A stretch of DNA of 64,000 nt from Dudresnaya verticillata (taxonomy: Eukaryota): positions 1,612,001 through 1,676,000 of the forward strand of contig OZ374562.1 in assembly GCA_977862235.1 (NCBI GenBank), written 5' to 3'. This document shows, one piece after another, positions 2,260-54,381 of this stretch; positions within the stretch are counted from its first letter, which is position 1; each line of letters starts with the position of its first letter. The notes under the pieces are model-generated. The model was not told the origin of the DNA and ran no database searches. It saw nothing but the letters and a program-made list of their open reading frames with translations. The translations under genes were made by a program, and so were the position numbers.

Positions 2260-3843
2260 ATGGACGCCCCGCTGCTCGCCGCGCTCGCGCTGTCCGCGCT
2301 GTTCGCCGCGCGCTTCACGCGCGCCGGAAAGCCCGGCGCGCCGCGCGTCGTCACGCTCGTGCTCTCCGCGCTCGTCTTCGTCGTCGCGTACGTCCTCGGC
2401 CTGGCCACGCTGGGCCGCCAGCTGCCGCATCTACGCGCGGCCACCGCCGTCGCGCCACCAGAAGCCGCCGCGCCGGATGCGCTGAAGCGCGCCCCAGCGC
2501 CTGTTGGTGGGCCACTAAAGGGTGCTGGAGTTGGATCTGGTGGGAAGGGCGCTTTGGCCCCTGTCAAGAGCGCTGCTGCTCCCCCTGCTATTGCAAGGGC
2601 GGACGATGATGACGAAGAGGCCGACAGACAGGGCTCCGCGGTTGCGGCAGCGCCTGTCGCGCCGCGTAAGCTGGAAGATACATACATTGTGTACGTTCCG
2701 GATCGCTCTGGGCTGTATAGCGGCAACCTGCCGGCGGAGGCGGCGCACACGTCGTACGCGGGAGCAATGGCGGACCACAATCTAGGCAATGTGGGAAACT
2801 TTGTGTGGCAGTACGGGGCTTATGTCGGGCTGCCGGACTTTTCGTCGACACGGACGTGCAATGTTTCGCGGGGGGCGTGTGACAAGAAGCTGCGCGAGGA
2901 GGGCGGGAAGGGTGTGGTGGAATACCGGCCTGTGTCCAACTTTTTTAACAAGCAGCGCGGGAACGACTTTGGGTACGACAACGGACTGATTGACCGCAAC
3001 GGAATCATGCCGCTGTTCGTCGGGATCGGGGTGCAGGACTACTTCAACCCTGACGCGGACAACGACATCGTTTCCGGACCGGAGATCGTGACGCGAGCGC
3101 AGGACTTTGAGTTTCGGCCTGGTGAGCGAGGCGTTCTGACCAAGCTGCAGAAGCACAAGTTTCCGATGCTGGTGCGCGGGGACTACACGCGGGACGCAAC
3201 ACGGGCGTTTGGGTACGAGTACGCGGTGTCCAACGGGTGCCCTAGCCTGATGATCTCGCGCGACGTGCATCTCGGACAGACACTGCAGCGCAAGTACGAG
3301 GCGCTGCGCGGGCGGATCGGGGACCGCAGCCTGCGCGTGGCGATCAACATCAAGAACAAGCCCGGGTTCACGCGGCTGTATCTGGGGCTTCTGAAGCGGT
3401 ACCCGAACAGCTTTGTTTATGCGCAGGGGATGGGGGACTTCCGGGCGCTGCGCGACGCCGGCGTGGGATTTGAGCGGATGCGGATCTTCAACACGGTGGC
3501 CAAGTGGCGCGAGAGCGTGGCCACGATGGACGTGTCGTTCGGCGGACGCATTCACGGGAATATGGTGTCGCTTAGCGTGGGTGTGCCGGTGGTTGTGATC
3601 GCGCCCGACCACCGCGTGCTGGAGCTGGTGAGGCGCATGAAGGTGCCGCATACGCATGTCTACGCGGGGGCCGTGGATGTGGACGCGGAGGTGGACGTGG
3701 CGCGCGTGGCCAGCTCTGCTGGGTTTGATGGGGACGCGTTCGATCGGAACCGTTGCGAGATCGCGAAGACTTATGTGGACGTGCTGGGGCGGTTTGGGAT
3801 CGGGGTGCAGGCACATGTGCGCGCGATTGCGGGGCTGTGCTAG
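2260..3843 (+). CDS. polysaccharide pyruvyltransferase-family protein with N-terminal membrane anchor (~527 aa)
   Basis: Within ORF 1942..3843; likely start is ATG 2260 (MDAPLLAAL). Hydrophobic N-terminal segments, then an Ala/Pro-rich stem, then a domain with GNVGN, LVRG, SNGCPSLM and GGRIHG motifs typical of PS_pyruv_trans-like GT-B proteins. No intron needed. Confidence 0.75.
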   Translation: MDAPLLAALALSALFAARFTRAGKPGAPRVVTLVLSALVFVVAYVLGLATLGRQLPHLRAATAVAPPEAAAPDALKRAPAPVGGPLKGAGVGSGGKGALAPVKSAAAPPAIARADDDDEEADRQGSAVAAAPVAPRKLEDTYIVYVPDRSGLYSGNLPAEAAHTSYAGAMADHNLGNVGNFVWQYGAYVGLPDFSSTRTCNVSRGACDKKLREEGGKGVVEYRPVSNFFNKQRGNDFGYDNGLIDRNGIMPLFVGIGVQDYFNPDADNDIVSGPEIVTRAQDFEFRPGERGVLTKLQKHKFPMLVRGDYTRDATRAFGYEYAVSNGCPSLMISRDVHLGQTLQRKYEALRGRIGDRSLRVAINIKNKPGFTRLYLGLLKRYPNSFVYAQGMGDFRALRDAGVGFERMRIFNTVAKWRESVATMDVSFGGRIHGNMVSLSVGVPVVVIAPDHRVLELVRRMKVPHTHVYAGAVDVDAEVDVARVASSAGFDGDAFDRNRCEIAKTYVDVLGRFGIGVQAHVRAIAGLC

Positions 3844-4395: not shown

Positions 4396-6855
4396 ATGGA
4401 CCCCAACCCGCCCACCCCCACACCCGCCCCCCCGCCGCCTCCCCCACCCCCACCGCCGCGCCGCCGCCGCCAGCAGCTCACGCTATTCCTGCAGGTCGCC
4501 GTGTGGTGGGGCGCCAACAACGCCTTCGCAGTCGACGCGCACCGCCTGCTGGCCGCGCACCCAGCGCACGTCTTTGTCGACCTAACCTTCACGCAGCTCT
4601 TCCTAGGCCTCGTTCTCTCCGCGCTATACCACGCGCACGCGCGCCCCTCCACGGCGAGCCGCTCGCTGCGCGCCGCGGCGCGCCCGCGCTCGGCGCCCGC
4701 GCTGCTGGCCGCGCTGCTGCATCTGTGCGGCTCCGCGCTGACCAACGCGTCGTACCGCGCCATCGGCGCCGCGTCCACGCTGGTGTGGAAGCTTTCCGAG
4801 CCCGTGGCCACGGTCGGCCTCAAGCGCGTGGTGCTGCGCGAGGCCACGCCGCCGCTCTCGCTGCTCGGCGTCGCGTGCGTGCTCGCCGGCGTCCTGATCT
4901 TCTCCGCGCGCAGCCTCACCGCGCTCTCCGTCTCCCCGATCGTCCTCGCCAACCTCGCCTTCCCGTCCCGCAACGTCCTGCTCAAACTCGACCAGCGCAG
5001 AGACACTTCCCCCGCCTCGCCCTCCTCCCCCACCTCCTCCGGAGCCGCTGGAGCCGCACGCCCCACAGAGCTCCGCTTCTTCGCCCTCCACGCCGCAGCC
5101 ATCCCGTTCGCAACAGTCGCTCTCCTCGTCAAGCTCATCTTCACAGGCCCGTCCCTCGCACTCGCTCCTGTCATGATCCGGAATGCCCTTCTCTTCAATG
5201 CATACCAGTTTGCCTCCATCGCCATTTTGGAAAAGCTCGACGCCCTCACACACTCCCTCGCCAACACCATGAAGCGCTTCACCGGCATTCTCTTGTCCTT
5301 CGTCGTCCTCCAGGAGGCTGTCGAGCCCCGCCACGCCCTCGGGCTCCTCTGCACTGTCATTGGCTTCCCCATGTACGTCTTTGGCGGAAAGAAGTTTACC
5401 GCCCCTGCATCGTCGTCGGACGTTCACCACACTCCACGGAAGGGAAGCAACTCCAGTAACAAGCGCTTGTACCTCTTGCTCGCAGTCGCCGGCGCTCTGC
5501 TCGCCGCCCTAGCCGCATCCTTGACGCATGCCGGTCACGTCTCCGGCATGGTCGACTCCCTCATTAACAGCCAAGTTTCCTCTGTTGGCGGTAGAGGTGC
5601 TAGAGCTGGTTCTGGTGTTAATGCTGGTGCTGATTCTCATTCTGGTGGTGGCAGCGCGGTGATGCCAAAACATCTCCCGCCCCAGTCTGCTCGAAAGTAC
5701 CTCGTCTTTGTACCGGACCGTTTTGAGTTGTACACAAAGGTGCAGCCGGTCTCTCGCATCTTCAAAAACTACGAAGAGGCCACTGATCCCGCGGGCAACA
5801 TGGGGAACAAGGTTTGGCGTCATGGGGCGTATCTGAGCCTGCCCGACTTTTCCGAAACAAAGACTTGCAATGGCTCGAAAGCAAGATGTGTTGACATGTT
5901 GAATCCGTCAGGAGACCATTCCCGCCTTGTCGAGTATCATCCGTGCGCCAATTACTTTAACCGGCAGCGCAAAGCAGACTTCGTGTACGACCTCCGCGCT
6001 CTCAAAAATCCGCGCATGGATATCCTGTACGTTGGAATTGGCATTCAGGCGTACTTCACACGCGACATGTCCAACAACGACCTCAACCCAGGCATGCGAA
6101 TCGAGTTCAGCCCGAAGGATTTCCGGTTTACACCGGGTGCGCGTCAGCTGCTTCGAGTCATGCAGCAGCGCAAGCTGCCCATGCTATTCCGCGGCGACTT
6201 CACATTACAAGCGACGCGGGAAGCTGGATATACCTACGGCATATCCAACGGGTGCCCCAGCCTGATGATCTCAACCGATGTACATCTCGGAAAGACACTG
6301 CAGAAGCGGTACGACGCCCTCAACCTCCGTGTTGGAGACAAGTCGCTCAAAGTCGCGATCAACATGAAGAACACAGCGCGCTACACGCAATTCTACAAGC
6401 GGCTCCTGGAAATGTACCCCAACTCCTTCATATTTGCGCAGGGAAGCGGGGACATTGCTGCACTGCAGGCCCAGGGCGTCCCGTACAGCCGTGTGAAGTT
6501 CTTCGAGGGCGTAGAAGAGTGGCGCGCTGCGCTACGAGAGATGGACGTGTCGATCGGGGCGCGAATCCACGGGAACATGATTGCGTTGAGCGTCGGGTTG
6601 CCTGTGTACGTCATAGCGCCGGACCATCGTGTACTGGAGCTGGTTCAACGAATGCGGTTACCGCATGTGACGTGGTACGATGATGGTCTTAGCACAGATC
6701 CTGGGGATGTCGCCGAGCGTATTGGTGGTTCCGGGTTTGACGGCAAGGCATTTGACGAAAACAGATGTCGAATTGCCCAGACTTACGTCAGCGTGTTTGG
6801 ACAGTACGGTATTCATGTATCAAAACATGTTAGGGATATTTCGCGCATATGCTAA
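4396..6855 (+). CDS. fusion of a triose-phosphate/PEP-translocator-like (TPT/SLC35E) transporter and a polysaccharide pyruvyltransferase-like domain (819 aa)
   Basis: The N-terminal ~330 aa are multi-pass hydrophobic with TPT motifs (VWKLSEPVATV, ANLAFPSRNV, LTHSLANTMKRFTGI). An extra TM and Gly/Ser linker follow, then a domain clearly paralogous to 2260..3843 (GNMGN, SNGCPSLM, GARIHGNM, IAPDHRVLELV). Confidence 0.8.
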   Translation: MDPNPPTPTPAPPPPPPPPPPRRRRQQLTLFLQVAVWWGANNAFAVDAHRLLAAHPAHVFVDLTFTQLFLGLVLSALYHAHARPSTASRSLRAAARPRSAPALLAALLHLCGSALTNASYRAIGAASTLVWKLSEPVATVGLKRVVLREATPPLSLLGVACVLAGVLIFSARSLTALSVSPIVLANLAFPSRNVLLKLDQRRDTSPASPSSPTSSGAAGAARPTELRFFALHAAAIPFATVALLVKLIFTGPSLALAPVMIRNALLFNAYQFASIAILEKLDALTHSLANTMKRFTGILLSFVVLQEAVEPRHALGLLCTVIGFPMYVFGGKKFTAPASSSDVHHTPRKGSNSSNKRLYLLLAVAGALLAALAASLTHAGHVSGMVDSLINSQVSSVGGRGARAGSGVNAGADSHSGGGSAVMPKHLPPQSARKYLVFVPDRFELYTKVQPVSRIFKNYEEATDPAGNMGNKVWRHGAYLSLPDFSETKTCNGSKARCVDMLNPSGDHSRLVEYHPCANYFNRQRKADFVYDLRALKNPRMDILYVGIGIQAYFTRDMSNNDLNPGMRIEFSPKDFRFTPGARQLLRVMQQRKLPMLFRGDFTLQATREAGYTYGISNGCPSLMISTDVHLGKTLQKRYDALNLRVGDKSLKVAINMKNTARYTQFYKRLLEMYPNSFIFAQGSGDIAALQAQGVPYSRVKFFEGVEEWRAALREMDVSIGARIHGNMIALSVGLPVYVIAPDHRVLELVQRMRLPHVTWYDDGLSTDPGDVAERIGGSGFDGKAFDENRCRIAQTYVSVFGQYGIHVSKHVRDISRIC

Positions 6856-8901: not shown

Positions 8902-11889
8902 TCAAGAGCCGGCATACCTAACTAACAACGGCGATTCTCTGATTCTCTTCTTGACGAGCTGCGGTAGACGTCTCTTCGTAAGAGCTTCGAATTCGACCAT
9001 TACGGTCGCGACGCCGACAGTACCAGTCCATGGCTGCTTAGTCGCTGAGTATATGGATGCCTTGTACTTTCCGTCCCAAGCACCCTTACCGTCATACGCC
9101 TCGTACCATATTATATACAGCTCAGTAGCCTTTCCCGTAGCGTCCTGCACAACATCTAGAATCTGTCCAACCCAAAATGGGCATCGTGCGGTGGCGTTCT
9201 CCCTCACAACGGCAACGAAGTAGTTCTTCGTGTACTGCAGGTCTGAAGAGGGGGTCACAGTTTCCTCCTCACCGTCATCCCCTTCCGGTACGTACTCCAG
9301 CGCCGCTCTTCCGCTGTACTTTTCCCTTGTCTCAAATATGTGTCCCATATCCCAATGAAACGTTTCCAGCCTATCTCTGTACACGTGGTCACGCAATTCC
9401 TGCAGCTCCCTCATGTTTCCCGTGTCATTCACACGTGTCTCTTCAGAACGAAACCTGTAGTTGACTTCCTTCAAATCTGGCGGCGATTTGACCACTGTTG
9501 CTGGAGTCTTGCCAAGGTCAGGAGGGGATAGTATGAACCCCTTATGCTCTCCTCCTGTCTGCAACGGAACCCAGTCATCCGCGCATGTCATTCTCAATTG
9601 ACAGCCTGTCACAAAAGCTGCAACAGATTCTGCCTCTTCCGTCGCAGCTGGACCCACACGGTGGAATCTGAAATAGCGATAGGTCGTGAATGCCTCAACA
9701 TTACCAATGCATCCTTCCTGTCGACACAGGCCTGAGAAATTCGCAATTTGAAGCATGCGACTGACAACTGGTTCTGGACTGTACGACTGCCGAAGCTCTT
9801 CCATCAATTCAGTCATTGTGACTGCGTCCCGAACTTTAAGCCGGCGTGCCGTGCACGAAAAGGCCTGATCTATATCTGTGTGAGTGTGCCCGACGGGCAG
9901 GAAAGACACGAAGACCTCTTGGAACACACTCCATGTAACAAGACTCTCCAGGTATGAGAACAAAAAGGTATTTTTGTTCTCTCTCGAACAGTTGTCTACT
10001 TGTAGAAATAAAGTCCCTTGTAGCTCTCCTCTGGACTGTTTGTCCGAAAGTGTTCTGTGCAACGCCTCGATAATGTGGTTCGCGCCGGTCTCGAACTCAC
10101 CGGTCATTGTGTACAAGTGCAGACGCTTCTCAGCCCTGTGTTCAAGCACCCCAATAAGCTTCGCTTTCATGGCATGCACAATGCTGGCTTTGGACGACAC
10201 CACAAAATGGGGAAGTCCAAATGCGGACTGATCAGCACCATCCACTATGAGGGAGCAATACTCTTGCGGAAATAGTATCGCCTTCTCACATTTTTTCTGA
10301 TATTCACGTCTCTCTGCCTGTATGAATTTCAAGTGAATGTTGCGCCGCCCATGCAGGTGTTCAGTGCCTGCTCCAGAGGTCCCTGCCTGAGCAAGTCGCT
10401 CCAGAATGAGTTCGCCTTCGCTGCACTTTGCAAATCGGTGTGTCTTTCGCACCTTAATGCGGGAGCAACTGTGTTTCTATACAAAGTAAAAGTAACTCTG
10501 ACACGGAATTTCCCTGTTTCTGTACAGCCTGGTGTGGTCCAATTTGAAGATGTCATACACAACTGATTTCTGAACGTAGGGGAGGTGTGACTCCCCATTA
10601 TCGGGCATTGGTTCAGCAGTGCTGTCTGCAAGACGTTCAAGGAAGCAAATGATAGTATCCTGCCGATGGGATGAGGTATCACGCCTCGCATTGTTTGGGA
10701 GCTGCAGCTTCCGGGACGGCCTCGTGCCTTTTACAGAGGTCTGTAAGTCACGGGAGAATCCAAAGGCCTGCTCCAGAAAGTTGTAACAGACCGGCTGGCG
10801 GTTGAAAAAGTATTTCATCTTTGTCGTGTCCAACAGATTGCGAACATTCGTTCGCCTTGCTTCTACGTTCATTCCGGCAATTTTGCGCGCCTCCGCCTTT
10901 AAGTACACTTGATCCACACTTTGGAAGCATTTCTTCCCGATACAGCATATCATTGACTGCGTGTTTGCGCGTTCCAGGTCTTTGAAGAGGTTCTTACGTC
11001 TCTTCTGAAGACTTCCTCTCCCACTGAATGTCTGCGGCTTTCTCTTCCTGTAAGTATACTTTCGCTTCGTCCTGACCTGCACCTTCTGAAAAGGGTCATA
11101 CGCATCGTCATCACTTTCCGACACGTGTCGTACGGCGTCCGCATCATCATGGCTGGCCTCCCTCAAATGCTCTCGCGGTTCACTCAATTCCTCACTGCTC
11201 GGAGCATTGCCAGGCGGGGGTGTTGTTCGAATTGACCGCGCTCCGGCATCCGCTTGCGGACCCGCACTTTGTTGGAGGGGTGATGCTGGCCTGGTTGTGT
11301 CAACTGGTATCATCTGCTGGGGCGATGCGGTAGGGGCCACCGCTGCGGCAGTGTTTTCTGCAGTTGACGTCGGGGGGCAATTGCTCAGTATTGGGTAAAT
11401 TCTGCGACGAACTATGGCCTGTCGTGGAGAGTACAACCGTCTCTGGCACAACGGCGCGATTTCTCGATTGCCGAGCTCCTGAATTTAGTTCACATCCCAT
11501 GCATGAAAACCCCCACCCATCTCCCCAAGTGTGTGCGGAACTGAGTCCGTTGTCTTGTACTTGTATTTGTACTGAAGTTTCTCATGCGGTTGCATGATTT
11601 GTGCTCGGTAAACCACAACCAATTTCTCCCCTTTTTTCTGACTGGGAGAAAATTTGTGGCCATGCAGGGTGACACAATACCTGCCAGACTGGTCTGCGTC
11701 CTCTTTTGTCCCCGGTCTCTTGACAATAGCAGTGCCGACCATTTCCCTTTCATACAGAAGAACAACACGCCCTTCGTTGCGCGCTTTGCCTCCTCCTTTC
11801 TTTGCTTCATTTTCTCGCTCAGCGCAATCCGTAGTTGACGGGCTCATTTCCATGTCGTTCAAAATGTCCTTCCGCGACGGCATGTGCAC
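8902..11889 (-). pseudogene. Sola-like (DUF7869-type) DDD transposase with premature stops
   Basis: ORFs 11485..11889, 10477..11451 and 8902..10452 are in the same frame, separated by single stops (e.g. YFYFV*KHS, probably TGG>TAG). Motifs RFAKC, IVDGADQ, QVDNCSRENKN, FLPVGHTHTDIDQ. Confidence 0.75.
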
Positions 11890-12639: not shown

Positions 12640-13540
12640 AGAAGCTGAGAATGTTGCCACGCCTGTGTATCCAAATGATGAACTTGTTCCTATCATTACA
12701 ACGAACTTGGTGGAAGAGTTAGAAAGCGGTGTATCTGTTATTGGCAATGACTTTCAAGAGCCGAATGTTTCCAGCTCAAGACAGAGGGAGGCTTCGACAC
12801 GTGCATCGAGAGCTTATGAATGTGTTAAACTCATCGGCCGACTCGCAACATTTGATTCAGGCGCAGTGAGTGTGATCAGCCCGGGCTGATCGAATGGCCA
12901 TTCGAAGAAGTGATGGTGCAAACATCTTCATCTAAGCTGTTATCACTGCTTGATATCGTCTTACAAAAGCTGCTTCGAGGGCTTTCTACGAATAGTTCTG
13001 TGCTCTCAGCTGATGCATTCACAGTCAGTCATCAACCTCTAACCGAAGGCACAAAGCCGAAGGGGAAGGAGCTCATTACCGCCATTTCTGATTCGCGTGG
13101 TGAAGAGGACGAACTGAGAAACACTGGAGCTAATAGGCATCGAATGATCAGTTTTGGTATGCTGTTGTTGGGAAGCACGATCAACAAGATCATGGACGTC
13201 GTAATGGGCTTTGGTACAGAATCACGTGAGTTACAAGCAATGGTAGAGCCCTTTTTGCCTATGGTTGTCCAATCGCTGAGAACATCCCAGGATTCCTTAA
13301 CTCTGAATGCAGTCAACAACGTGCAAAAGCTCCTGAAACTTACCCTTCCCAACAAAGCTTCCGTTGCAGGATAAATGTCGGAAACAATTGTCAGCGTTCT
13401 CTCACGAAAGGCAGGACTAGTCACATATACAGAAGACTTATTTCACGCTTGCCTGCGGGCAGCAGCGGCATTGATTTACGAAGTCGGCGGTAAGCAATTC
13501 AAGGTAACCGAGTCGAAGCTCTTGTTGGGATATCGTGTAA
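12640..13540 (+). pseudogene. UTP20: captured fragment of a UTP20-like (SSU processome HEAT-repeat) gene, part 1
   Basis: Broken helical-repeat ORFs (12665..12889, 12910..13374, 13375..) with ASRAYECVKLIGRL resembling the UTP20 C-terminal half; stops and frameshifts; boundaries approximate. Confidence 0.5.
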
Positions 13541-13589
13541 CTGCCTTGAGAATGCAAAGGCCGCATCAGGGGCTTGTATTGCAGTGCGG

Positions 13590-14140
13590 AAAACTTGACT
13601 ACCAGGATCCTGGTATTTCGGCATCTCCTTGAGCTCGAGCTCAAGGAGATGCCGAAACCTGGGGAGAAGAAGGAGTGTTGGCTTGTGCTACATGAAGTGA
13701 GTGCCCCGCAAAACGCTGGCGCCTTATTGCGCTCGGCGTACTTTCTCGGTGCGGACGGTGTCATTGCCTGTAAGAGAAATAGTACGAAGTTGACACCTGT
13801 GGTGTCGAAGGCGTCTGCTGGTGCACTCGAGGCGATGCCAGTGTACGGTGTTCGCTCTTTACCGAGCTTTGTCAGGGCAGCGAGGAGGGATGGATGGCGT
13901 GCGATTGGTACTGCCCTTGGGGACGGGACAGTCGATGAAAAGACGGCTGAGCTGGACAGTTCATCGCTGGTTGTGATGGGCAGTGAGGGGCATGGTCTGA
14001 GGACTATGGTGAGGTATGAGTGCGATTTACTGGTCAGGATACGCGGTCGAGAGGAAGAGGACGACGCGGAGGATGCCGTAGACTCTCTCATTGTGAGTGT
14101 CGCCGGTGCTGTGACGTTGTTTCAACTGTTAGGGCGATAA
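13590..14140 (+). pseudogene. captured 5'-truncated SpoU/TrmH-family (MRM1/RlmB-like) rRNA 2'-O-methyltransferase
   Basis: PQNAGALLRSAYFLG, VSKASAGALE, VMGSEGHGLR and DSLIVSVA (canonical SLNVS with N>I); lacks the N-terminal domain and a true start. Confidence 0.8.
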
Positions 14141-29100: not shown

Positions 29101-32100
29101 GGCTACACCTGTTTCGAAAACTCGACTCTTGAACAAACATTACCGCCGGAAAGCCGTTCTGCACTACCGTACTGCCGTCCCGGATATATCTCGCATATAT
29201 CTAGCGCACTTTCATCTGCAAAGTCAGCGGAGGACGCCCAACGGCTCATCGCTAATCTCCCAGAGACACTCTGTGCACCTTGGCAGGATACGCGCCCAAA
29301 TGCACCACGTACGACGCAACACCCGTGGCGTGCCGTATTAGAGGCACTCCGCGGCGTACTTCAAAGAGCATACCACAAAATGAGGACGGCACGGGACACG
29401 GTCGCAAGATCTGAAACTGAGGAACAGCACCGCTCTGCACTACGCATTCGCTCCCGCTCGAGAGCTCTACGTAAATCCGGAGAGAAAAAGAGGGGTACCG
29501 AGCTATTACGTCGCCCGAACTCGTGTCTGGCTTGCGCAGTCCGCTGTAAACACCTTAAACGTCCACGTCGTTCCCGCAAGTTGTAATGTGCTGCTCTACA
29601 ACCTGCTGTGTTCAAACTCCCATATGAAGTCGCCACCCACTACCCAGCCCCCCCAGAATTGTGCGGATTTTATGTTTCAGCTTCGTTTCGAGCCTCACTG
29701 CAGCGCGCTATTATCTCAATGCCCAACGCGAGAGCTGAAGGGACCGGTAATACGCATGTTGAAATGCTAAAAACATACAGCCCGCAACTTGCTGCTGATC
29801 TGCTCTTCGCTTTGTGCCAGTGCTGCGGGCGGTTCGGTATCTTCCCGGATTCCTGGAACCAAGGCCTCCTTGTTCCCGTATACAAGAAAGGAGAGAAGAA
29901 AGACCCAGCGAACTACCGTCCCATTTGCACCCTGTCGCATCTACGTAAGACAATCGAACATGCGATTGTCTATGAAATCGATGCTTTCTTCAAGCCCCAT
30001 AGAATGAAGATTAGGTTTAAACGCCGCTTGCCCACGGAAATGGCTGTTGAGATGAAACTAGCTGCCCACAAGGACGGAGACAACTACACAGCGATCCTGG
30101 AAAGCTATGGTAAGGGCAACGATGGGGTCCCTCTCTATGAAAACTGTAGGATAAATGCCACGAGATTCAAAGCACCCGTTCGTCGAGGTGTCGTACAGGG
30201 CTCACCGTTGAGCCCTGTTCTGTTGAACCTATTCATCGATACACGCGCATGCTCACTCTGTGAAGATCTCGAAGGATCCCAGAATACCCTCCGGGGGAAA
30301 CTTTTGCGGGTGACTGACTTTTGCACGTCCGCTAAACTGCGGAGCTCCGCGAAGCACTCTCAATCTACGAAAACTGAGCCCGCCGCTATGATATGCTCTG
30401 GGTGGTCAACAAGTGTGCCGTCATCCTCCCCAACACAATTCGCTGTCGCTCGATCTCTGTGGCTTTCTACCTCAATGGAGAGTAATTCCCAGTCCGCGCG
30501 TCTACAGTATACCTAGGATTGTATATTTGCTCTACTGGCGTTCTCCCCTCGACGAATGTGAAGCGAATCGCTGCGGCAAAGAAGAAATTAGGCATGTTAG
30601 TCTGGATGGGCTTCGTCACCTCTGAAATTCCGGCAGACGCATTACGGTTCATTTACAAGACATTATTCGGACCACGGTCTGTGAATTCCTGAGGCTAGCG
30701 ACGCAGTGGGCAACGCGGATTTCTTGACTATTATCGCTCCAACGTATGTTGGAAGGTTGTAGGACCTGATCCGAATGTGGAGCAATAGTCTCTACCTCAA
30801 ACGGAAGGTGCTCCGAAAAGTTCAGGTTAAGACTTGAGACGTTCAGGTTGAGATCTGAGAAGTCCAGATCTCGGGAGTATAGTTCTGAACTATTACAGCT
30901 TGGTTCGAGCGTAATCTGCAAGGGCGTAGCAGGCTGGCAGGAGGTGCAGCACGGTCAGCGAAAGGATAGTGATTAGGGAGACGGAGGTCGGAATAGTGAG
31001 AGGGCGCTACCTCTCTGCTCGGTCGGTTCGCCAAGAGAGGGCTGCCTTCATTGTGAACGCGGTTCGCGTCGTGCTACAAAAGACAGAGAAACTGCGCCTC
31101 GCGCAGCGAGAAGCACAGGGAGATCGGCTTGCCGCGTTCAACGTGGGCCGCTGGCCACACATGACGCCGGGTCGGAGCTACCAATCACAGACTGAATTAA
31201 TCCAGGTCATCTGATATTATAATACGACATCAGCCAAGTGGCTGCACGTGGCACCCGGTCGCAGACCTGGCGGCAACACGTCGCTCAATTGCGCAGCCAT
31301 TGTCCGCCGAGCAGAATTCAGGCCGGGAGCTCAACGTCGCAGCCGTTACCGCGCAGCGGGTCCTGACCTGAATAGCACGTCGCAAATGGTGCTCTGGTGT
31401 AACAGGTCGAACACGGCTGCCCCTTGTACCCCACAAAGCCACGCTCCTCTCCGCTCTGGATGCGATAGACTCCTCATTTTCCGAATTCCCATCTCTCAAG
31501 GCGCCATGCGACTGTCAAAGAACCGCCTGCGGAAACTGCGCGCAATTTTTCGTATCGATTCCCCACTGACCCCGCCAAGAATCTCTCCAGTACAAATTTG
31601 TTGCAAGCCTGCTCAAGAATAAGCGCCGAACCGATGCAAACAGCGGCTGGCATGCTCAACAAAACCTCGATGCACTCCGAAACCTCCCACTGTATAAGGC
31701 GCCCTGCTTTACTTTATCGCCGAAAACTCTCTCCGCTGCTCTTCTCATAGAATGGAATACTGCGCTCTCGGGGTGCCGCCCGGCCCCGGTCTACCCATCA
31801 CCTCACGTTTTGCCCCCGAATTCCTACTCAGTCACCACAAGGACAGGAAACGCGCCGTTGGTACCTGGGAACATTTCCCATCCCGCCACGCTGCCTGTCC
31901 GCCCTCAATTTAGTTCGCAAAAGCCCCCGCACACTCCACGACCTCTCCAAGCCACACCCCTCCCCCCAGACCATTGTAGCCATCTCGGGTGCAATTTATG
32001 CGATCAGGACCCTCTGTGCACTTGGGTTTCCCACCTCCCATACCGGCGGGACCCCAAAATAGATCATCTCCCCTTGCTACAGTAATGTCGCCACGACCCC

Positions 32101-38169: not shown

Positions 38170-41100
38170 TTGTTAGCCATTACATGGCGTCTGGCAACGC
38201 CAATCCAGGTTTGGTCAACCCATGATTTGACCTACCACTGCCCATTTTCATCTAACGGTCTGGTGTGGTCACCGCCCTGGAGGTCTGGCCATACTACGTC
38301 ATCATCCACCCCCACAAACAATGGGGGTTCTTTGCCAAAGAGTGGCCGCAAATCATCGAACGACGAACAGAAAGAAGAATCCCAACTGGCCAGTGTTTCA
38401 TCACAAGGTATGGTCTGCATCCTGGGTGGGGCCAACTATACCCTTTCGGGTTCATTTGGGCTCACAATTTTCGCCTTGTTACCAGGGCCAATTGTCTTAG
38501 ACACGTGCTCGGGTTGGAACATCATCCGGTTGGATGCGTTACCTCCCAACTGGAAGGACAACGCACTTGGGTTAACGTCCCCTCCCCTTCTGGGGGACGC
38601 CAACCAACGGCCGATTCATTTTCGAGGGGCTGTTTCCTTGGTCGTACGCTTAGGCCGTCACTCATATCGAGTGCCGTTCCTTATCGCCGACCTTCGCTTC
38701 GCCGTACCCGTTTTGTTGGGTACGGCATTTCTGAACACGCACGTGGATAGAATCCAGTGCCGTGCACAGACCGTGCAATTAGTGCGCGGTGACGTCCTTC
38801 CTTTGTTACCCGACAGCACTTCGATGGCTCTGGGGGCAGAGCCAACCGCTGCGAAGGGGGCCCCGCCTCCGGGTAATTCCAATTCGGCCAGTGTGGAACG
38901 CAAGACCCCGCGACACTACGCGGCCACTGCACGCTTGACGAAAGGTCTAACCATACGGGCAGGCCAACAGGCCACCGTGTCTGTTCGCAGCGATGGCCGA
39001 GGATTATGTGTGTTGGAGCCCAAACATTCTTTGAGCTTTCGACACCATACGCGGATGGCCAATGGAGTTGCCGAAGTTCGGCCGCAGAAACCATTCCAGG
39101 TAATGCTGGCCAACTGGGGAAGAAAGGATGTCTTACTGCCAAAGGGTACCGTGGTCGGCTATGCTGTCCGCCACCCCATGGCAATCCTGACGCCACATCG
39201 ACGGAGTGTGGAGAATATGGCCAGTGTACTTGGGCTTACTCCACTTGTGGATCAGGGTAGTAGTCAAGTAGAAGTAGAAGAATCTGGCCAAGAAACAGGG
39301 GAACCTGCGGAACCGAAGGTACCCAGACAAGAGGCACAAGAATGGCGGGATAAGATCAATCTTGACCATATTCCGGACAAGAAACAACGCGAAAAGATAA
39401 TGGCCATTCTAGAGAAACACAGTGCAATGTGGGACGGTTCTCTGGGACAGATCATGGCCACCGAACATCGGATAGACTTGGAAGATGGAACACGGCCAAT
39501 AAGAGCGATGCCCTATCGGCAGGGCCCTGCGTTACGCGCGATCGCAGAGGCCGATATTAGGAAGCAGTTGGAGGCCGGAGTGATAGAGCCATCGCACGGA
39601 GAATGGGCCTCGCCAATTGTGATGGTACCGAAAAAGGACGGCACCCTTCGTTTCGGCGTCGACTACCGCCGACTCAATGCGAAGACAGTTGGTGACGCAT
39701 ACCCGCTCCCGCGCATGGACGATTGTATAGACTCCCTGGGGGATGCGGCCGTGTTTTCAACCTTGGACTGCAACTCCGGATATTGGCAAATACCAGTGGC
39801 CGAGGAGGACAAGGATAAGACGGCCTTCACCTCTCACTTGGGGACATTCAGGTACAATCGAATGCCGTTTGGCTTGAAGAACGCACCAGCCACATTTCAG
39901 CGTGCGCTTGACATAGTTCTCTCTGGCGTCCGATGGCAGATCTGCCTCATCTATCTGGACGATGTCATCGTGTTCTCCAAAAGTGTGGAGGACCACCTTG
40001 GCCATCTAGACGAGGTCTTAACCTTGTTGAAGGCGGCCGGCATTACGTTGAAGTTGAAGAAGTGTTCCTTATTTCAGGCCAAAGTAGATTATTTGGGCCA
40101 TGTAGTGACTCCCGGAAAACTAAGTATGGCCATGCAGGGTACCAAGGCAATACAAGAAGCCGAGTTTCCAGGGTCCCTGACGGAACTTCGGTCTTTCTTG
40201 GGAGCTTGCAATGTCTACCGAAGGTTCGTGGCCAAATACTCCACTATCGCACGGCCACTTACGCGCATGTTGTGCAAGGATGCCGAGCCGGACTTCGAAC
40301 GGCCAACGGAGGAAGAACTTCATAGCTTCGAGAAACTGAAGGCCGCCCTCGTCTCGCCGCCGATTCTGGCCTTACCTAGATACGGCCGGCCATACGTGAT
40401 TGAGACCGATGCCAGCGCATATCAGATTGGATGCGTTCTGCTCCAAGAACAAGAGGACGAGTCGTACCATCCCGTAGGATATTGGTCTCGTTCCCTAACG
40501 TCGGCCGAGAAGAATTATTCGGCCACTGGGCGCGAATGTTTGTCTGTGGTGTGGGCCATTACATCACTACGGCCATATGTTGAAGGTACCAAGTTCACAG
40601 TCCGTACGGATCATGATGCCCTCCGTTGGTTGATGTCGCTCACTGATTCGTCTGGCCGTCTTACAAGATGGAGATTACGTCTGGCCGAGTTCGACTTTGT
40701 GATTGAGTATAACCCGGGCCGTAAGAACCAAGTACCCGATGCCTTGTCCCGCTTGGTGGCCCCGCAAGAGCGCGGAGACGCACGGCCAATAGATGATACT
40801 GTACCTGTATTGGACGGTACCCCCTCTATTCTCACGACCACGCGGGCCCGGAGAAATCGAGAAACTAATATGGCCGACAGGAGGGAAAGAGATGATGGAG
40901 TCGACGCATGGGAAGAGGAACATTTGATGGCCGACTATACGGTTAATGGCCGAGCGGAAGTCTTCAGTCGTGCACAAATGGAAGTGAAGACAGCAGAGAC
41001 TCTCCCAACACCAGTAACACAGACTGAAATAATAGAAGGCCAGAAAAACGATGACTTCTTCCAGACCATTCTCGCCACGCGAGCTGGCCTGGGACGACCC

Positions 41101-42491
41101 AAGAAACCTCTCTTCTTCGAAGGGGTCGATGGGGTCCTCTACAGACGTTGTCCAACAGATGGCCAGAAACAAATGGTGCTTCCAGCCTCGTTGCATGGCC
41201 GCATTCTTCGGTTGTGTCACCATACCGTTCTGGCAGGTCACCCTGGCCAGAATCGAATGTATCAGACTCTTCGACGGACATACTATTGGCCACACATGGC
41301 CGCTGATTGCCTAGCAACAGTTCGGAACTTTGGCCATTGCGCGAAGAACCGGATTCGTCGCCTCCGACATACATCGAAGTTACAGCTGTTCCCGGCCAGT
41401 CAACCATTAGAGAGTGTGGCCATGGATCTTCTCGGGCCGCTCCCCAGGACTAAGAAGGGGTTCGAGCACATATTAGTCATTACATGCCGCTTCTCGAAGC
41501 TGACTCAGGTGGTGCCGTTGACAAAGATAACCGCCTATAATGTGGCCACGGCGTTCTGCGTTCACTGGATTTTCAAGTACGGCGCACCAAAGACAGTTCT
41601 TACCGATAACGGAGGGCAGTTTGCGGCCAAGTTCTTCCAGGCAGTCTGCCGGCAATTACAGGTGGCCAACATCTTCACAACAACATATCATCCATAAACA
41701 AATGGCCAAGTGGAAAGGTACAATCGAACACTGGCCGCAATGCTGAGGAGCTACGTGAAAGAACACCAGACTGACTGGGATGAATACGCTGCGGCATTGA
41801 CGTATGCTTATAATTGCCATATACATCACTCGACTGGAACCACGCCGTTTGACTTGGTTCTCAGTCGGCCGCCGAGCTCATTCTCACTTGAGGCTACGTT
41901 AAACCGGCCAAAGCCAACAGGGACTGTGAAAGAAGCGTTCTTGCGCCGATTATCAGAGGCCGTGGATAAAGCTTCGGCTAGTTTAACTCGCACACAAGCG
42001 CGCTACAAGAAGGACTTTGACCGCTCGGTTAGGACGGGTAATAAGATGCTGGCCGCTGGGGGGTTTGTCTTCTTGGACAACCCAGAAAAACAGCCAAAGA
42101 AACTAGAGCATCATGCCCAGGGGCCGTACAAAATTTAAGCAACGATGGCCGTACGTTCGTCATCGACAGAGCTGGCCAACTAGAGCGTGTTAGCTCGGAC
42201 CGAGTAGTAGCCGCGCCCAGGCCACAGGGGCAACCGATGGCTACGGAGACAATGGCCAGCGCCGCATTGGGAACCCTTCCGGAAGGAGTCGCTGCGTCGG
42301 CCGAGGAATATGTCATTGATAAGCTCACGGATATGCGCGAGGATTCAACTGGCCAGCGATGGTTTCAGGTCAAGTGGTATGGGTATAATGGCCGAACGTG
42401 GGAACCCGAGGCTCTTCTGCCAGCCACGTTGGTATCCCGCTTCTTCGCGCGCATGAAGCGCCGAGCTACGCCGGGCCAAAACAGTTCGTAA
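38170..42491 (+). pseudogene. pol: pol of element A (PR-RT-RNaseH-IN-chromodomain)
   Basis: VLDTCSG protease, YLDD RT, IETDAS RNase H, DLLGP/TDNG integrase, stop in YHP*TNG (41697), frameshift near 42135, EYVIDK...VKWYGY...TWEP chromodomain. Confidence 0.92.
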
Positions 42492-49968: not shown

Positions 49969-52900
49969 TTAGCGGCGTGCCTTGGCTGGGCGTCGCAGTG
50001 GCTTTCCCTTAGCGGAGCTCTTGCGTTTTTGCTTCCAATAGCGGTAGATGAAGTTCTGCGGCAATTCCTCGGCGGGTTCGTAGGTATCCTGATCCGGAGG
50101 GTAACCATACCAGCGGACTTTGTACGTCATCCCAGTAGGTTCGTCGCGGTGACCGACAATCTTGTCGATCACATATTCCGTATCGGCTTGTAGTGGTTCC
50201 GTCGCGGAGGGAGTAGTACCTTCAGAAGGAGGTACTACTATAGTACCTTCTGGATGTGGCACTACTTCTCCGTAGACGGTTGATGGCGTGACAGGCGGCA
50301 CTGTTAAGGGTGCCGGCTGAACCGCAACTCCGATCGGAACCTTCGTGATGCGATCGATACTTACGGGGATCAATACCCCTTCCTTTCGGATTGTAACAAC
50401 ATGTTCCGTTGCGGATTCCACTTCGTAAGGCCCCGTGGCTCTCGGAAGGAGTTTCTTCATTTCCTGAGCCACCTCGCCTACATCATCCGGCTTGCCTTCC
50501 AATCGGTCCCGTTCACGGCGTTCGGCAGGCCGCAAGTTATGGGGCGGCCTGTCGACGTAGACTTGATCTCCGTTACGGATTATGGGCCTAAAGCGCACCT
50601 TACGGTCAAACAGTGCCTTGGCTTTTTGCTGAGCCACTGTTTGCTTCGTGCGCGCTGTTTGGAGCGCATACCGTAAACGGCGCATGGTACTCCGCTTATG
50701 TAGCACCGGGGTCATAAGCCCTTCCGTAACGGTTTCTTGATGCTCGACAGGAGCCCCTCGTACTACAATGTCCGATGGGTGGCGTGTCAGCACCAAATCA
50801 AATGGCGTTGTTTCCGTAATACGGTGTACCTGCATGTTGTACGCATATGTCAACGGTTGCAGGTACAAATCCCAATCGGAGTGATGATCCTCAACGTAAT
50901 GGCGCAAACGCTGAGCGATTGTCTTATTAAATCGCTCAGCTTGCCCATTTGTCTGCGGATGGTAGGCAGCGGTAAGTAGATGCCTGACTCCGAGTAAGGA
51001 ACACACTGCGTCAAAGAACTTAGCAGTAAACTGCGGTCCATTATCGGTTAGGACAAATTGGGGTGCGCCGTAGGCGTACACCCAAAAGTCCAGAAAGGCG
51101 TTAGCCACCACAACGGCTGTTGTTGTCCGTAACGGAATACAGCGCGTCAGCTTAGAGAACCGATCGGTTATTACCAAAACGTAGACATAACCCCGTTTTG
51201 TCTTCGGAAGCGGCCCGAGAATGTCGATAGCGACGAACTCCAAAGGTCCGCTAGCGGGGAAAAGCTTCATAAATCTTTGATTCCGAAAGCGGGTTCCCTT
51301 TGTCTTCGCGCAGGAGCGACATGTCCGAACGGATTCAAGTACATCGTTGGCCATATGAGGCCAATAATAATCCTGTCGGAGTGTATAATACATCTTAATC
51401 CCGCCTGGGTGACCCGACATCAGGGTGTAGTGGGATAAATACAATACCCGTCCACGGAGTTCGCTTGGCACCACCTTTTGTAGAGCGCCATCCAATTGGG
51501 ACTTGCGTACCAAGAATCCGTTACGGTCATAGTCAAACTGTGATCCAGAGGAGCCTACCGTATCGGCTTTGAGACGACAGAAAGGGTCTCTGGCTTGCGC
51601 TTCGAGGAACTCCTCCCTGGTAATTGTCTCATCCTTAACGTCGGATTCTTGTATTACAGTAAACCGTGACGGTATTGCGTCGGGCTTGTCAGGGGAGGCG
51701 GATGCACTCCCACTGGCGGGCTCCACGGCGCATATTACGTTATTTTCCGTAGCGGTTTCTTGTGATGTGGCCCAATCGGTTAAATAGACTCCATGCTCGT
51801 ATAATCCGTCGACGGTATTTTCGGCGACAAAGCAGGGTATCTCTTCATCCAAAGGTCTATTGTCACCGCCATCCGTTCGGAGTCGCGACATCCCATCGGC
51901 GAGTTGGTGCTTAATTCCAGGACGGTATTGCACCTCGAATTCAAATTCCGATAGGCGGAGCCTCCACCTGGCTAGGCAGCCAGATGAGTCTGCGAGGTTC
52001 AGGATCCACCGCAGGGCATCGTGATCCGTTCGGAGAATAAACTTGTCACCGTAAAGGTAGGGTCGTAGTGTTAACATGCTCCAGACCACGGCTAAGCATT
52101 CCTTTTCGGTTGTCGTATAATTTTTCTCCGCATCGGTGAGGCTTCGGCTCCAGTATCCAATAGGGAGGTGATCGCCATTCGGTTGTTCCTGCAGAAGGAC
52201 ACAGCCGACTTGGTGGTCACATGCGTCAGTGTCCAACGTATATTTATATCCGTGACGGGGTAGAGCCAATATAGGTGGAGAGATAAGGCGTCTCTTCAGT
52301 TCCTCGAAGGCTTCATATTCCGTATCGGATAATATTCCAAACTCAAAGGGTGAGCCCTTGCCGGTTTTCTTATTTAGCGGAGCTGAAATCCGAGCGAAGT
52401 TGGGTACAAAGCGACGATACACGTTGCACATTCCCAAGAAGGATCGCAATTCCGTTTGGTTAGTCGGCGGCTTCGCGACCTTGACGGATTGGATATTTCG
52501 ATTATCCACTTCTAATTTTCCGGGACGGATAACATGCCCCAGGTATTGTACAGACGCGTTAAAGAAGTCACACTTTGACAATTTCAACGTTACCCCAGCG
52601 GATCGTAAAAGCGTAAGGACTTCCTTCAGGTGGTGGAAATGTTCCGTAACGGTTTTTGAGTAGACAATTACATCGTCTAGGTAGACGAGGGCAAATTGCC
52701 ATTTAACCGTAGAAAGGATTATATCCATTGCCCGTTGGAAGGTTGCCGGTGCATTTTTCAATCCGAATGGAATTCTCCGAAAACGGTTTAAGCCAAAATG
52801 GCTAGTGAAGGTAGTTTTGTCCCTTTCCTCTTCCGGAATCTCGACTTGCCAATATCCGCTATTGCAATCCAGGGTGGTAAATACAGTAGCTTCCCCAAGG

Positions 52901-54237
52901 GAATCTATGCATTCATCCATCCTGGGCAAGGGATATGAGTCCCTAACCGTTACGGAATTTAGCCTTCTATAGTCAACACAGAACCGCATGGTGCCGTCCT
53001 TTTTTGGAACGAAAACCACGGGGCTGGTCCACTCCGATGAGGCTGGTTCAATTACCTTAGCGGAAAGCATGCGATCGATCTCTGTCTTTTCGAGATCTCG
53101 CTGCTTATGTCCGGCACGGTATGGGGCTTGGTATACTGGCTTAGCTCCGGGAGTTAACTCGATGCGGTGCTTGGCAGCTGTAATGTTGCCAAGATCGCCA
53201 CTCCACATCGACTTATATTCCTCGAGTAGGGTTAAAATCCGTTTGCGGAGCGATGCTTCTTCTGTGCCGATCTGGACTTGATCCTTCCAGTCGGTAGTAT
53301 TTGTATTTTCCGTTACGGGTTTGCTTACTTCCTTGTCGTGAGGGGAGATGCTGCTGGCCTTTTCGGAGGTAGGGTTAGAATTAAATGAGTGAATAATTCC
53401 TCCCCCTCCTTAAATGGAGGTATACCGTCAACGGTAAAAAATAGCAGAGGGGGCAGCAGTAGCGAGGCCCACGACAGTAGATTTGGGCAACCGTACCGGC
53501 TTGTTAGAAAAAGTAGAGACCCAGATCCGAAACGGTTTGTTAGGTACAACATCCATAATACCATTAGCCATTAACGTAAGGTGCTTAAAAGCCGGCTTAG
53601 GATGATTTTGTAGAAAGCATAACCCACCCGTGGGGGTATTAACCGTTACGGTGGTTTGAGTCATAGGGGGAATAAGGGTAGATTTTGCTAAACGAAGTTT
53701 CTGAGAAACCGTAGCGGTAGAGAGAGGTGAGGGCTGTAGGGTTGCAGTGGTTCCCGTCTTCGGAATTTTGGCTTGACCAACAAGGGATACCGGTGGGTAA
53801 TGATGAAAAACAACTTTCCGTAACGGAGGGAGTATTGCCTTCACGTAGCGGTCGATGAAGGTAGTTCCCAAAATACAGGGAGCCGCCAAGTTCGCGACCA
53901 CTAGAAAATGGACGCGAGCACGGAGCTCTCCGATACGGACGAAAAGTTGGATCTGACAAAGAGGGCGTATAGCGCGATTAGACGCATCCCGTAATGGAGG
54001 ACTGGCTGCTGGGCGTATGAGTGGGAGCCATTGGCGCGGAAGGCGCCTGGCACTAATGAGATTGGGCCCAGCGCCAGAGTCCAAGACGGAGATTAAAGGA
54101 AGCATCACGCTATCTGTCCGTCCCACGGTAATTTGCATCTTGTAATTTTGATGTTGCATAAAGCAGATAGTATCATTGGTCTGATAAGCCAATGGGAGTT
54201 CCGTAACGGTATCTCGCCGATCCCCTGGCGGGTCCAC
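49969..54237 (-). pseudogene. pol: pol of element B (protease ORF 53428..54237, frameshift, then RT-RH-IN-chromo ORF 49969..53208)
   Basis: VLDSGAG, YLDD, LDTDAC, HYTLMSGH..CRSC, DILGP/TDNG/QAER, EYVIDKI..KVRWYGY..DTYEP; a frameshift near 53430 separates PR from RT. Confidence 0.92.
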
Positions 54238-54381
54238 ACTCGCGAGAGGTGGAACGCCGTGAGGCGGGGATGGCGGCGCCCTTACGCATCCCCCCTTGAG
54301 TTTTCCGAATTCAAGGTTGCACCAGTCGGATCCGCCTCCATGGGCTCGCGCAATTCTGCGAGTTCCACTCCGTCATGGTCC

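Follow-up and report, generated by a model that had tools for sequence, protein, structure and literature searches.

How do red algae build the pyruvate ketals that determine how agarans and carrageenans are charged and influence agarose quality, and how does the phosphoenolpyruvate (PEP) for this reaction reach the enzyme? A single open reading frame (ORF) in the red alga Dudresnaya verticillata suggests an answer. It lies at positions 4396-6855 of the 64,000-nucleotide stretch that we analyzed (hereafter, the window; contig OZ374562.1, positions 1,612,001 to 1,676,000) and joins a TPT-family carrier, through an extra membrane helix and a linker, to a pyruvyltransferase-family domain. We think it reasonably probable that this single chain exchanges PEP for inorganic phosphate (Pi), likely across the Golgi membrane, and transfers pyruvyl groups in the lumen to galactose, most likely that of wall galactan.

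The ORF runs from the ATG at 4396 to a TAA ending at 6855 on the forward strand, with 819 codons uninterrupted by stops and free of N. Searches against Pfam place PF03151 (TPT) at amino acids 30-327 (79.2 bits against a cut-off of 30, E 4.5e-22, profile positions 3-290 of 291) and PF04230 (PS_pyruv_trans) at amino acids 598-744 (34 bits against a cut-off of 25.3, E 3.8e-8), the latter match taking in the C-terminal half of the profile only. A full-length AlphaFold2 model built from 110 aligned relatives (mean predicted local distance difference test score, pLDDT, 87.9) shows ten helices at amino acids 22-329, an 11th hydrophobic helix at 354-378, a linker of low confidence at 379-425, and an alpha/beta domain from amino acid 430. 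When all six frames of the window were scanned with profiles of both halves, the carrier was found once and the enzyme domain twice. Thus, an earlier sequence-only reading of this DNA, which described one 819-amino acid chain with a multi-pass TPT-type carrier, an additional membrane helix followed by a linker, and a PS_pyruv_trans-like C-terminal domain, holds in each of these respects.

The fusion is conserved. Both Pfam domains are present in ten of the 12 matches of a full-length search, which are colinear with the D. verticillata protein from end to end at 37-60% identity. Two of these homologues, from Gracilaria changii and Agarophyton chilense, are complete fused ORFs derived from transcripts, and the named close relatives are likewise Gracilaria and Agarophyton proteins, less than 50% identical to this one, which fits a florideophyte red alga distinct from those species. 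Because so many full-length homologues, transcript ORFs included, carry both domains, the fusion is no artefact of this assembly; the same colinearity supports the proposal that the gene is intronless. That the two parts belong to separate genes, or that the assembly is chimeric here, with the frames agreeing by chance, could be argued from the fact that the D. verticillata evidence is genomic DNA alone and from the short carrier-only and enzyme-only relatives that exist. The complete fused ORFs in independent transcriptomes and the colinear full-length matches make this explanation very improbable. Distances between carrier halves also correlate with those between enzyme halves across 38 fused proteins (Spearman 0.40, matched by 0 of 999 permutations), a correlation that kinship alone yields.

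A wider profile search, over 1.8 billion representatives with the best 150 matches taken, enlarged this picture. We scanned 54 of the 132 newly found proteins for domains (45 of at least 600 amino acids plus 9 carrier-only), and half of them, 27, matched both the PF03151 and PF04230 families at E ≤0.01. Both halves were found in 54 of 166 proteins with profiles built from the same proteins, a count that is partly circular. A search with the carrier only gave two proteins, both fragments of close relatives. Many rows that appear as standalone in our trees, which were drawn midpoint-rooted, have long branches, and contain no ordinary pPT, SLC35E or Pet1/Pet2 rows, are probably truncated fusions; two of them, P0011 and P0017, start in the last carrier helix. 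P0017, from Gracilaria domingensis, has 488 amino acids, is annotated as a polysaccharide pyruvyl transferase, and probably represents an incomplete gene model of the fusion. The exact window proteins were not found in the protein collection searched, and among the JGI metagenome contigs, scanned with the alignment of close relatives, none of 214 pattern matches was confirmed.

The family of the enzyme half is well supported. All 30 Atlas matches of the domain are PF04230 clusters. When the domain model (pLDDT 94.5) was run through a structural aligner against 48,161 chains, the first rank went to 6X1L, the activity-proven pyruvyltransferase WbbZ (Z 13.2, root-mean-square deviation 3.6, 214 residues aligned), and the third to fission yeast Pvg1p (5AX7; Z 12.1, root-mean-square deviation 4.2, 244 residues aligned). 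The family motifs are NxGD, RxxxS/T and H (PMC10629545). The PEP-site motifs are present as R599-GDF-T603 and R723-I-H725, their equivalence assigned by motif order, and R599, R723 and H725 are retained in 88, 91 and 89 of 94 relatives, respectively. The residues of CsaB that correspond to R599 and H725 are important for its activity (PMC10435577). Relatives of the domain are also carried by bacteria: 163 records matched in a search of plasmids, and among the 20 best all ten with an annotation under the match are labelled polysaccharide pyruvyl transferase. Bacterial relatives cover the whole PF04230 profile (1-279 of 280) and lie in glycan clusters.

Several observations nonetheless count against assigning the domain to pyruvyl transfer. 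A UDP-GlcNAc 2-epimerase ranks between the two pyruvyltransferases with a Z of 12.3, a tie, so the fold is not decisive. In place of NxGD the domain has N468-M-G-N471, with Asn at the last position in 73 of the 94 relatives and Asp in 14; the D106A change in the NxGD of Pvg1p inactivates that enzyme (PMC4872226), and no enzyme of the NxGN class with an assay turned up in our literature search. Foldseek with the enzyme model returned GT-B proteins, with neither Pvg1p nor WbbZ among the matches listed, and profiles of the enzyme gave no sequence match to solved structures; with the protein and two profiles, 5AX7 was not matched even at E 10. The fused enzyme therefore falls outside the Pvg1p subclass, whereas P0161 (the Stephanoeca fusion described below) matches 5AX7 at E 1.6e-19. 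Together with the half-profile Pfam match, these results could mean that the domain is a PF04230-like GT-B enzyme with another reaction, or is inactive. We consider this distinctly improbable, given the retained Arg/Arg/His of the PEP site, the Asp still present in some relatives, and the bacterial relatives with their full-profile matches, annotations and glycan clusters.

For the carrier half, the closest solved structure by single sequence, by profile and by fold is that of GsTPT2 (PDB 5Y78). The carrier profile matches 5y78 at E 2.5e-41, against 6.5e-11 for SLC35B1, the sole nucleotide-sugar carrier among the 15 rows of that search, and Foldseek places 5y78 first (TM-score 0.78, E 2.5e-9). 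Phosphate is bound in GsTPT2 by Lys204, Tyr339, Lys362 and Arg363, and transport of this type is a strict 1:1 exchange (Lee et al., 10.1101/169169). All four ligands have aligned counterparts here, K132, Y270, K293 and R294, which make up a phosphate site of the pPT type, and all four are retained in 43 of 49 relatives (the remaining members of the 110-row alignment with at least 75% of the carrier covered). A plastid translocator was considered and rejected, as there is no room for a transit peptide ahead of the carrier: 27 Pro-rich residues precede it, and in 42 fusions the median is 11, with 30 or fewer in 39.

Whether PEP is the cargo is less clear-cut, and two features weigh against it. 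In the plastid translocators, PEP preference is tied to an Asn at position 263 (PPT), and Phe disfavors PEP in plant TPT (10.1101/169169); the D. verticillata carrier has Phe at this position (F189), and Asn occurs in none of the 49 relatives. The carboxyl ligand His185 of GsTPT2 is replaced by S113, and His is found in one relative of the 49. The carrier scores 63.5 bits on TIGR00817, whose cut-off is 317.9, and so lies outside the plastid pPT subfamily. With His185 lost the pocket is remodelled, and for this reason and the low score the plant specificity rules may not apply in either direction. Thus, the sequence-only description of a PEP-translocator-like carrier stands as to the TPT type and the phosphate site, but not as to the PPT-type Asn.

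The cargo could then be something other than PEP (phosphate only, triose phosphate or 3-phosphoglycerate (3-PGA), or a nucleotide sugar), with PEP arriving otherwise and the fusion serving for co-localization or phosphate removal. Besides the retained Phe and the lost His, this explanation has the Atlas neighbors of the carrier on its side, which comprise TPT, EamA and nucleotide-sugar clusters that are not separated from one another, the last at 0.96-0.97 when the top score is 0.98; the Pfam TPT family also includes nucleotide-sugar carriers. On the other side are the complete pPT-type phosphate site, the wide lead of GsTPT2 over nucleotide-sugar carriers in both profile and fold, and the repeated fusion of this carrier to different types of PEP-using enzyme. 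Moreover, GsTPT2, with Phe263, nonetheless binds PEP, with an inhibition constant of 8.3 mM as against 0.6-1.0 mM for 3-PGA and triose phosphate (10.1101/169169). On balance we judge a different cargo to be improbable and PEP the likelier substrate.

The position of the 11th helix bears on where the enzyme would act. A DMT carrier with ten helices has its two termini on the same side of the membrane (10.1101/169169), so an 11th helix following the carrier is expected to shift the enzyme to the side opposite the cytosol. Of 57 fused proteins, 50 have a single hydrophobic segment between the domains, 4 have none and 3 have two, and Lys and Arg are in excess before the segment relative to after it in 47 of the 57 (Wilcoxon p 2e-9, on rows that are not independent). 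Four Cys of the enzyme domain are retained in all 14 close relatives, and the sequon at 492 in ten of them. These features fit a protein with its N-terminus in the cytosol and its enzyme in the lumen, where disulfide bonds would form. The sequence-only reading proposed a topology prediction as a check; ours, from ten plus one helices and the charge bias, places the enzyme across the membrane from the cytosol.

If these assignments are right, the two halves would work as follows. The carrier would swap cytosolic PEP for luminal phosphate across the Golgi membrane, and the tethered luminal enzyme would draw on this PEP to attach pyruvate, as a ketal, to galactose in a secreted glycan. The transfer would free Pi, which would return as counter-substrate for the carrier; release of Pi is what the CsaB assay relies on (PMC10435577). 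Because the freed phosphate is the counter-substrate of a strict 1:1 exchange, the carrier and the enzyme would together form a closed cycle. A local supply of PEP seems more plausible than direct channelling, the link being a loose tether. The precedent named by the sequence-only reading was confirmed, as Pvg1p of Schizosaccharomyces pombe requires the Golgi PEP carriers Pet1p and Pet2p (PMC4872226, PMC6801904), and so was its statement on red-algal ketals, since red-algal galactans commonly contain 3-linked 4,6-pyruvylated galactose (PMC6801904). This common 4,6-pyruvylation makes red-algal galactan the likeliest acceptor. Of the Golgi module first proposed, the single chain is established and the luminal enzyme predicted; PEP as cargo, the Golgi location and galactan as acceptor are inferred, and the PPT-type Asn is absent.

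The fusion is also found far from the red algae. Among ten distant fusions checked, two come with an organism name; they are transcriptome proteins of Amoeba proteus and of the choanoflagellate Stephanoeca diplocostata. One more is an MMETSP transcript. In the Stephanoeca fusion the same type of carrier, with all four phosphate residues, is joined to a true Pvg1p homologue (5AX7 at E 1.6e-19), and this carrier type is fused to further PF04230 types as well. The Stephanoeca and Amoeba fusions score just 4-6 bits on the profile of the D. verticillata-type enzyme. As their enzymes differ from the red-algal one, a single carrier type has been paired with different types of pyruvyltransferase. Some relatives depart from the pattern. 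P0066, P0071, P0079 and P0111 are fused and have an intact carrier site and decayed enzyme motifs, and may be pseudo-enzyme carriers; P0089, P0094, P0106, P0038 and P0065 are fused and have intact enzyme motifs and altered carrier phosphate residues. P0065, of 1387 amino acids, combines a carrier with two enzyme domains.

This distribution bears on the acceptor. The sequence-only reading had suggested a search for the TPT and PS_pyruv_trans combination in other algae and saw in the protein a candidate agar or carrageenan enzyme. The combination does occur in other red algae, and its presence in a choanoflagellate and an amoeba, organisms without agar or carrageenan, counts against a dedicated role in these galactans. 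Rather, the architecture is a general module for glycan pyruvylation and no red-algal specialty, and agar or carrageenan would be its lineage-specific target. That some relatives have lost the residues of one half indicates that coupling is useful and not obligatory.

PEP import and pyruvyl transfer might proceed as proposed on a different acceptor, a glycoprotein glycan or a minor glycoconjugate in place of bulk galactan. Pvg1p pyruvylates N-glycans (PMC4872226), neither sugar nor linkage separates the clades of pyruvyltransferases (PMC10629545), and the fusions of Amoeba proteus and Stephanoeca point the same way. Conversely, the pyruvylated red-algal glycans described in PMC6801904 are galactans, and the pyruvyltransferase family has expanded in the red-algal lineage, with a tandem paralogue and several clades. 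In G. changii, thalli express a unigene, GC_3116 ('polysaccharide pyruvyltransferase'), whose level sulfate deprivation lowers twofold together with that of other transferases that modify the wall (PMC5402284), which is only suggestive. The unigene is probably the orthologue, because its forward primer encodes GRYGLQ, a hexapeptide unique to the G. changii fusion P0005 among the 204 proteins collected. All told, an acceptor other than wall galactan is unlikely. A fuller version of the galactan reading, in which the protein is a self-fuelling red-algal galactan pyruvylase whose carrier defines a non-plastid class of PEP translocator, with a remodelled pocket, recruited repeatedly across eukaryotes to unrelated pyruvyltransferase types, is one that we hold only tentatively. 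If true, the fused enzyme would become the first assayed NxGN member, and the carrier-less tandem paralogue described below would share the same PEP supply.

Homologues of the fusion are already in the databases, and we did not find it described in print: our literature search, with most subscription journals and bioRxiv supplements outside its scope, found no description of a carrier-pyruvyltransferase fusion and no paper in which PF04230 and PF03151 occur together. Within the same search, no enzyme was found that is proven to pyruvylate red-algal galactan; red-algal pyruvyltransferases appear there as annotation labels, and the route of PEP supply is unaddressed. The available text of PMC5402284, from 2017, treats GC_3116 as a pyruvyltransferase only, leaves a carrier unmentioned, and does not test activity, and a Gracilariopsis genome paper lists two pyruvyl transferase gene ids (PMC5970526). 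The fusion is not treated in the available portions of PMC6981301, PMC5635587, PMC9127767, PMC9933657, PMC9319447 and PMC4496566; 'pyruvyl' is absent from two diatom TPT papers, and 'pyruv' from a seaweed wall review. Since a single ORF without introns, suitable for expression in yeast, encodes both transporter and enzyme, red-algal galactan pyruvylation becomes directly testable. That the same design turns up in distant eukaryotes suggests that their glycans are pyruvylated more widely than the few described cases show.

Upstream of the fusion lies a paralogue that the earlier note did not mention (Table 1). It is 51% identical to the fused protein's enzyme over 388 amino acids. Its frame is open from 1969, and the ATG there is an unlikely start because 2260 is preceded by a TATA-like word and by a leader rich in C. 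In the enzyme tree the paralogue sits among proteins that are mostly fused, suggesting that it arose by duplication and then lost the carrier. It is closest to P0016 (55% identity). P0016 and the carrier pieces P0014 and P0015 each give a longest contig of 5492 bases, and thus the tandem pair may be kept in a relative.

Table 1. Features of the fused gene, its tandem paralogue and the rest of the window (window positions; residue numbers refer to the fused protein).
Position	Strand	Feature	Basis
2260..3843	+	Tandem paralogue, 527 amino acids from ATG 2260; anchor and enzyme domain with all motifs, no carrier	
4396..6855	+	Fused ORF, 819 amino acids; TPT-family carrier, extra membrane helix, linker, pyruvyltransferase-family domain	
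4459..5382	+	Carrier domain, residues 22-329; ten predicted membrane helices, DMT fold	Pfam, profile, Foldseek
4789..4791	+	K132, equivalent of GsTPT2 Lys204; phosphate binding	Alignment; 10.1101/169169
4960..4962	+	F189, equivalent of GsTPT2 Phe263; Asn in plant PPT	Alignment; 10.1101/169169
5203..5205	+	Y270, equivalent of GsTPT2 Tyr339; phosphate binding	Alignment
5272..5277	+	K293-R294, equivalents of GsTPT2 Lys362-Arg363; phosphate binding	Alignment
5455..5529	+	11th hydrophobic helix, residues 354-378, basic residues ahead; predicted type II-like anchor	
5530..5682	+	Linker, residues 379-429; Gly/Ser/Ala-rich, variable in length, mostly pLDDT <50	
5683..6852	+	Pyruvyltransferase-family GT-B domain, residues 430-819	
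		Enzyme-domain motifs: N468-x-G-N471, R599-xxx-T603, G-C-P-S 619-622, R723-I-H725	
		Other enzyme-domain marks: conserved Cys pairs 491/498 and 791/819; sequon N492	
8902..11313	-	DUF7869 ORF and an unmatched 278-amino acid ORF; possibly a DNA transposon	E 1.8e-46 (DUF7869)
12913..14140	+	SpoU methylase ORF (13649..14140) and a weak UTP20-like piece	
29719..30516		Weak reverse transcriptase piece	
38410..41697	+	Long terminal repeat (LTR) retrotransposon pol ORF (reverse transcriptase, RNase H, integrase)	
49969..56553	-	LTR-retrotransposon pol ORF (reverse transcriptase, RNase H, integrase) with chromodomain	
58976..59848	-	Hint-module protein	E 1e-27
60033..61565	-	Copper type II ascorbate-dependent monooxygenase ORF	

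Compared with known systems, the algal protein brings familiar parts together in one chain. Its best structural match, Klebsiella pneumoniae WbbZ, is a beta-Gal 3,4-pyruvyltransferase that shares the RxxxS/T and His motifs (PMC10629545); it is bacterial, carrier-free, of the NxGD type, and 11% identical to the algal enzyme. Another relative is a tandem pair of PF04230 genes on Sinorhizobium meliloti pSymB (L020:15704-18097), which has NxGN, RG, GCPS, RxHG and DxR in common with the algal enzyme, at 24% identity over 265 amino acids and about 100 bits to the family profile; it is bacterial and again without a carrier. Higher profile scores were reached by actinobacterial and Aminobacter proteins, in a bacterial search that covered plasmids only. 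The pSymB pair is flanked by glycosyltransferases and rfbACBD, and a MarR regulator, a type I secretion pair and a calcium-binding protein adjoin. This gene content matches that of the exp cluster for galactoglucan (EPS II), a product that bears pyruvylated galactose (PMC1403797). By this analogy the pair, which the record does not label exp or wga, are candidates for the galactoglucan pyruvyltransferase.

With the plastid translocators, as represented by GsTPT2, the fusion shares the 10-helix DMT fold and equivalents of Lys204, Tyr339, Lys362, Arg363, Thr188 and Phe263. It differs from them in having no transit peptide, in the changes of His185 to Ser/Thr and of Phe192 to Tyr, in scoring far below the TIGR00817 cut-off, and in carrying an 11th helix and an enzyme. 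The chemistry itself is not new, for fission yeast is already known to have the two kinds of part and to pair them. S. pombe Pvg1p with Pet1p/Pet2p likewise combines a carrier with a membrane-anchored GT-B enzyme that has an Arg/Arg/His site and a type II anchor and superimposes on the algal domain at Z 12.1; the Golgi carriers Pet1 and Pet2 are compared here by their described role. In yeast, however, these are separate proteins, whereas the alga has them in a single chain, with an enzyme of the NxGN/GCPS subclass that gives no sequence match to Pvg1p.

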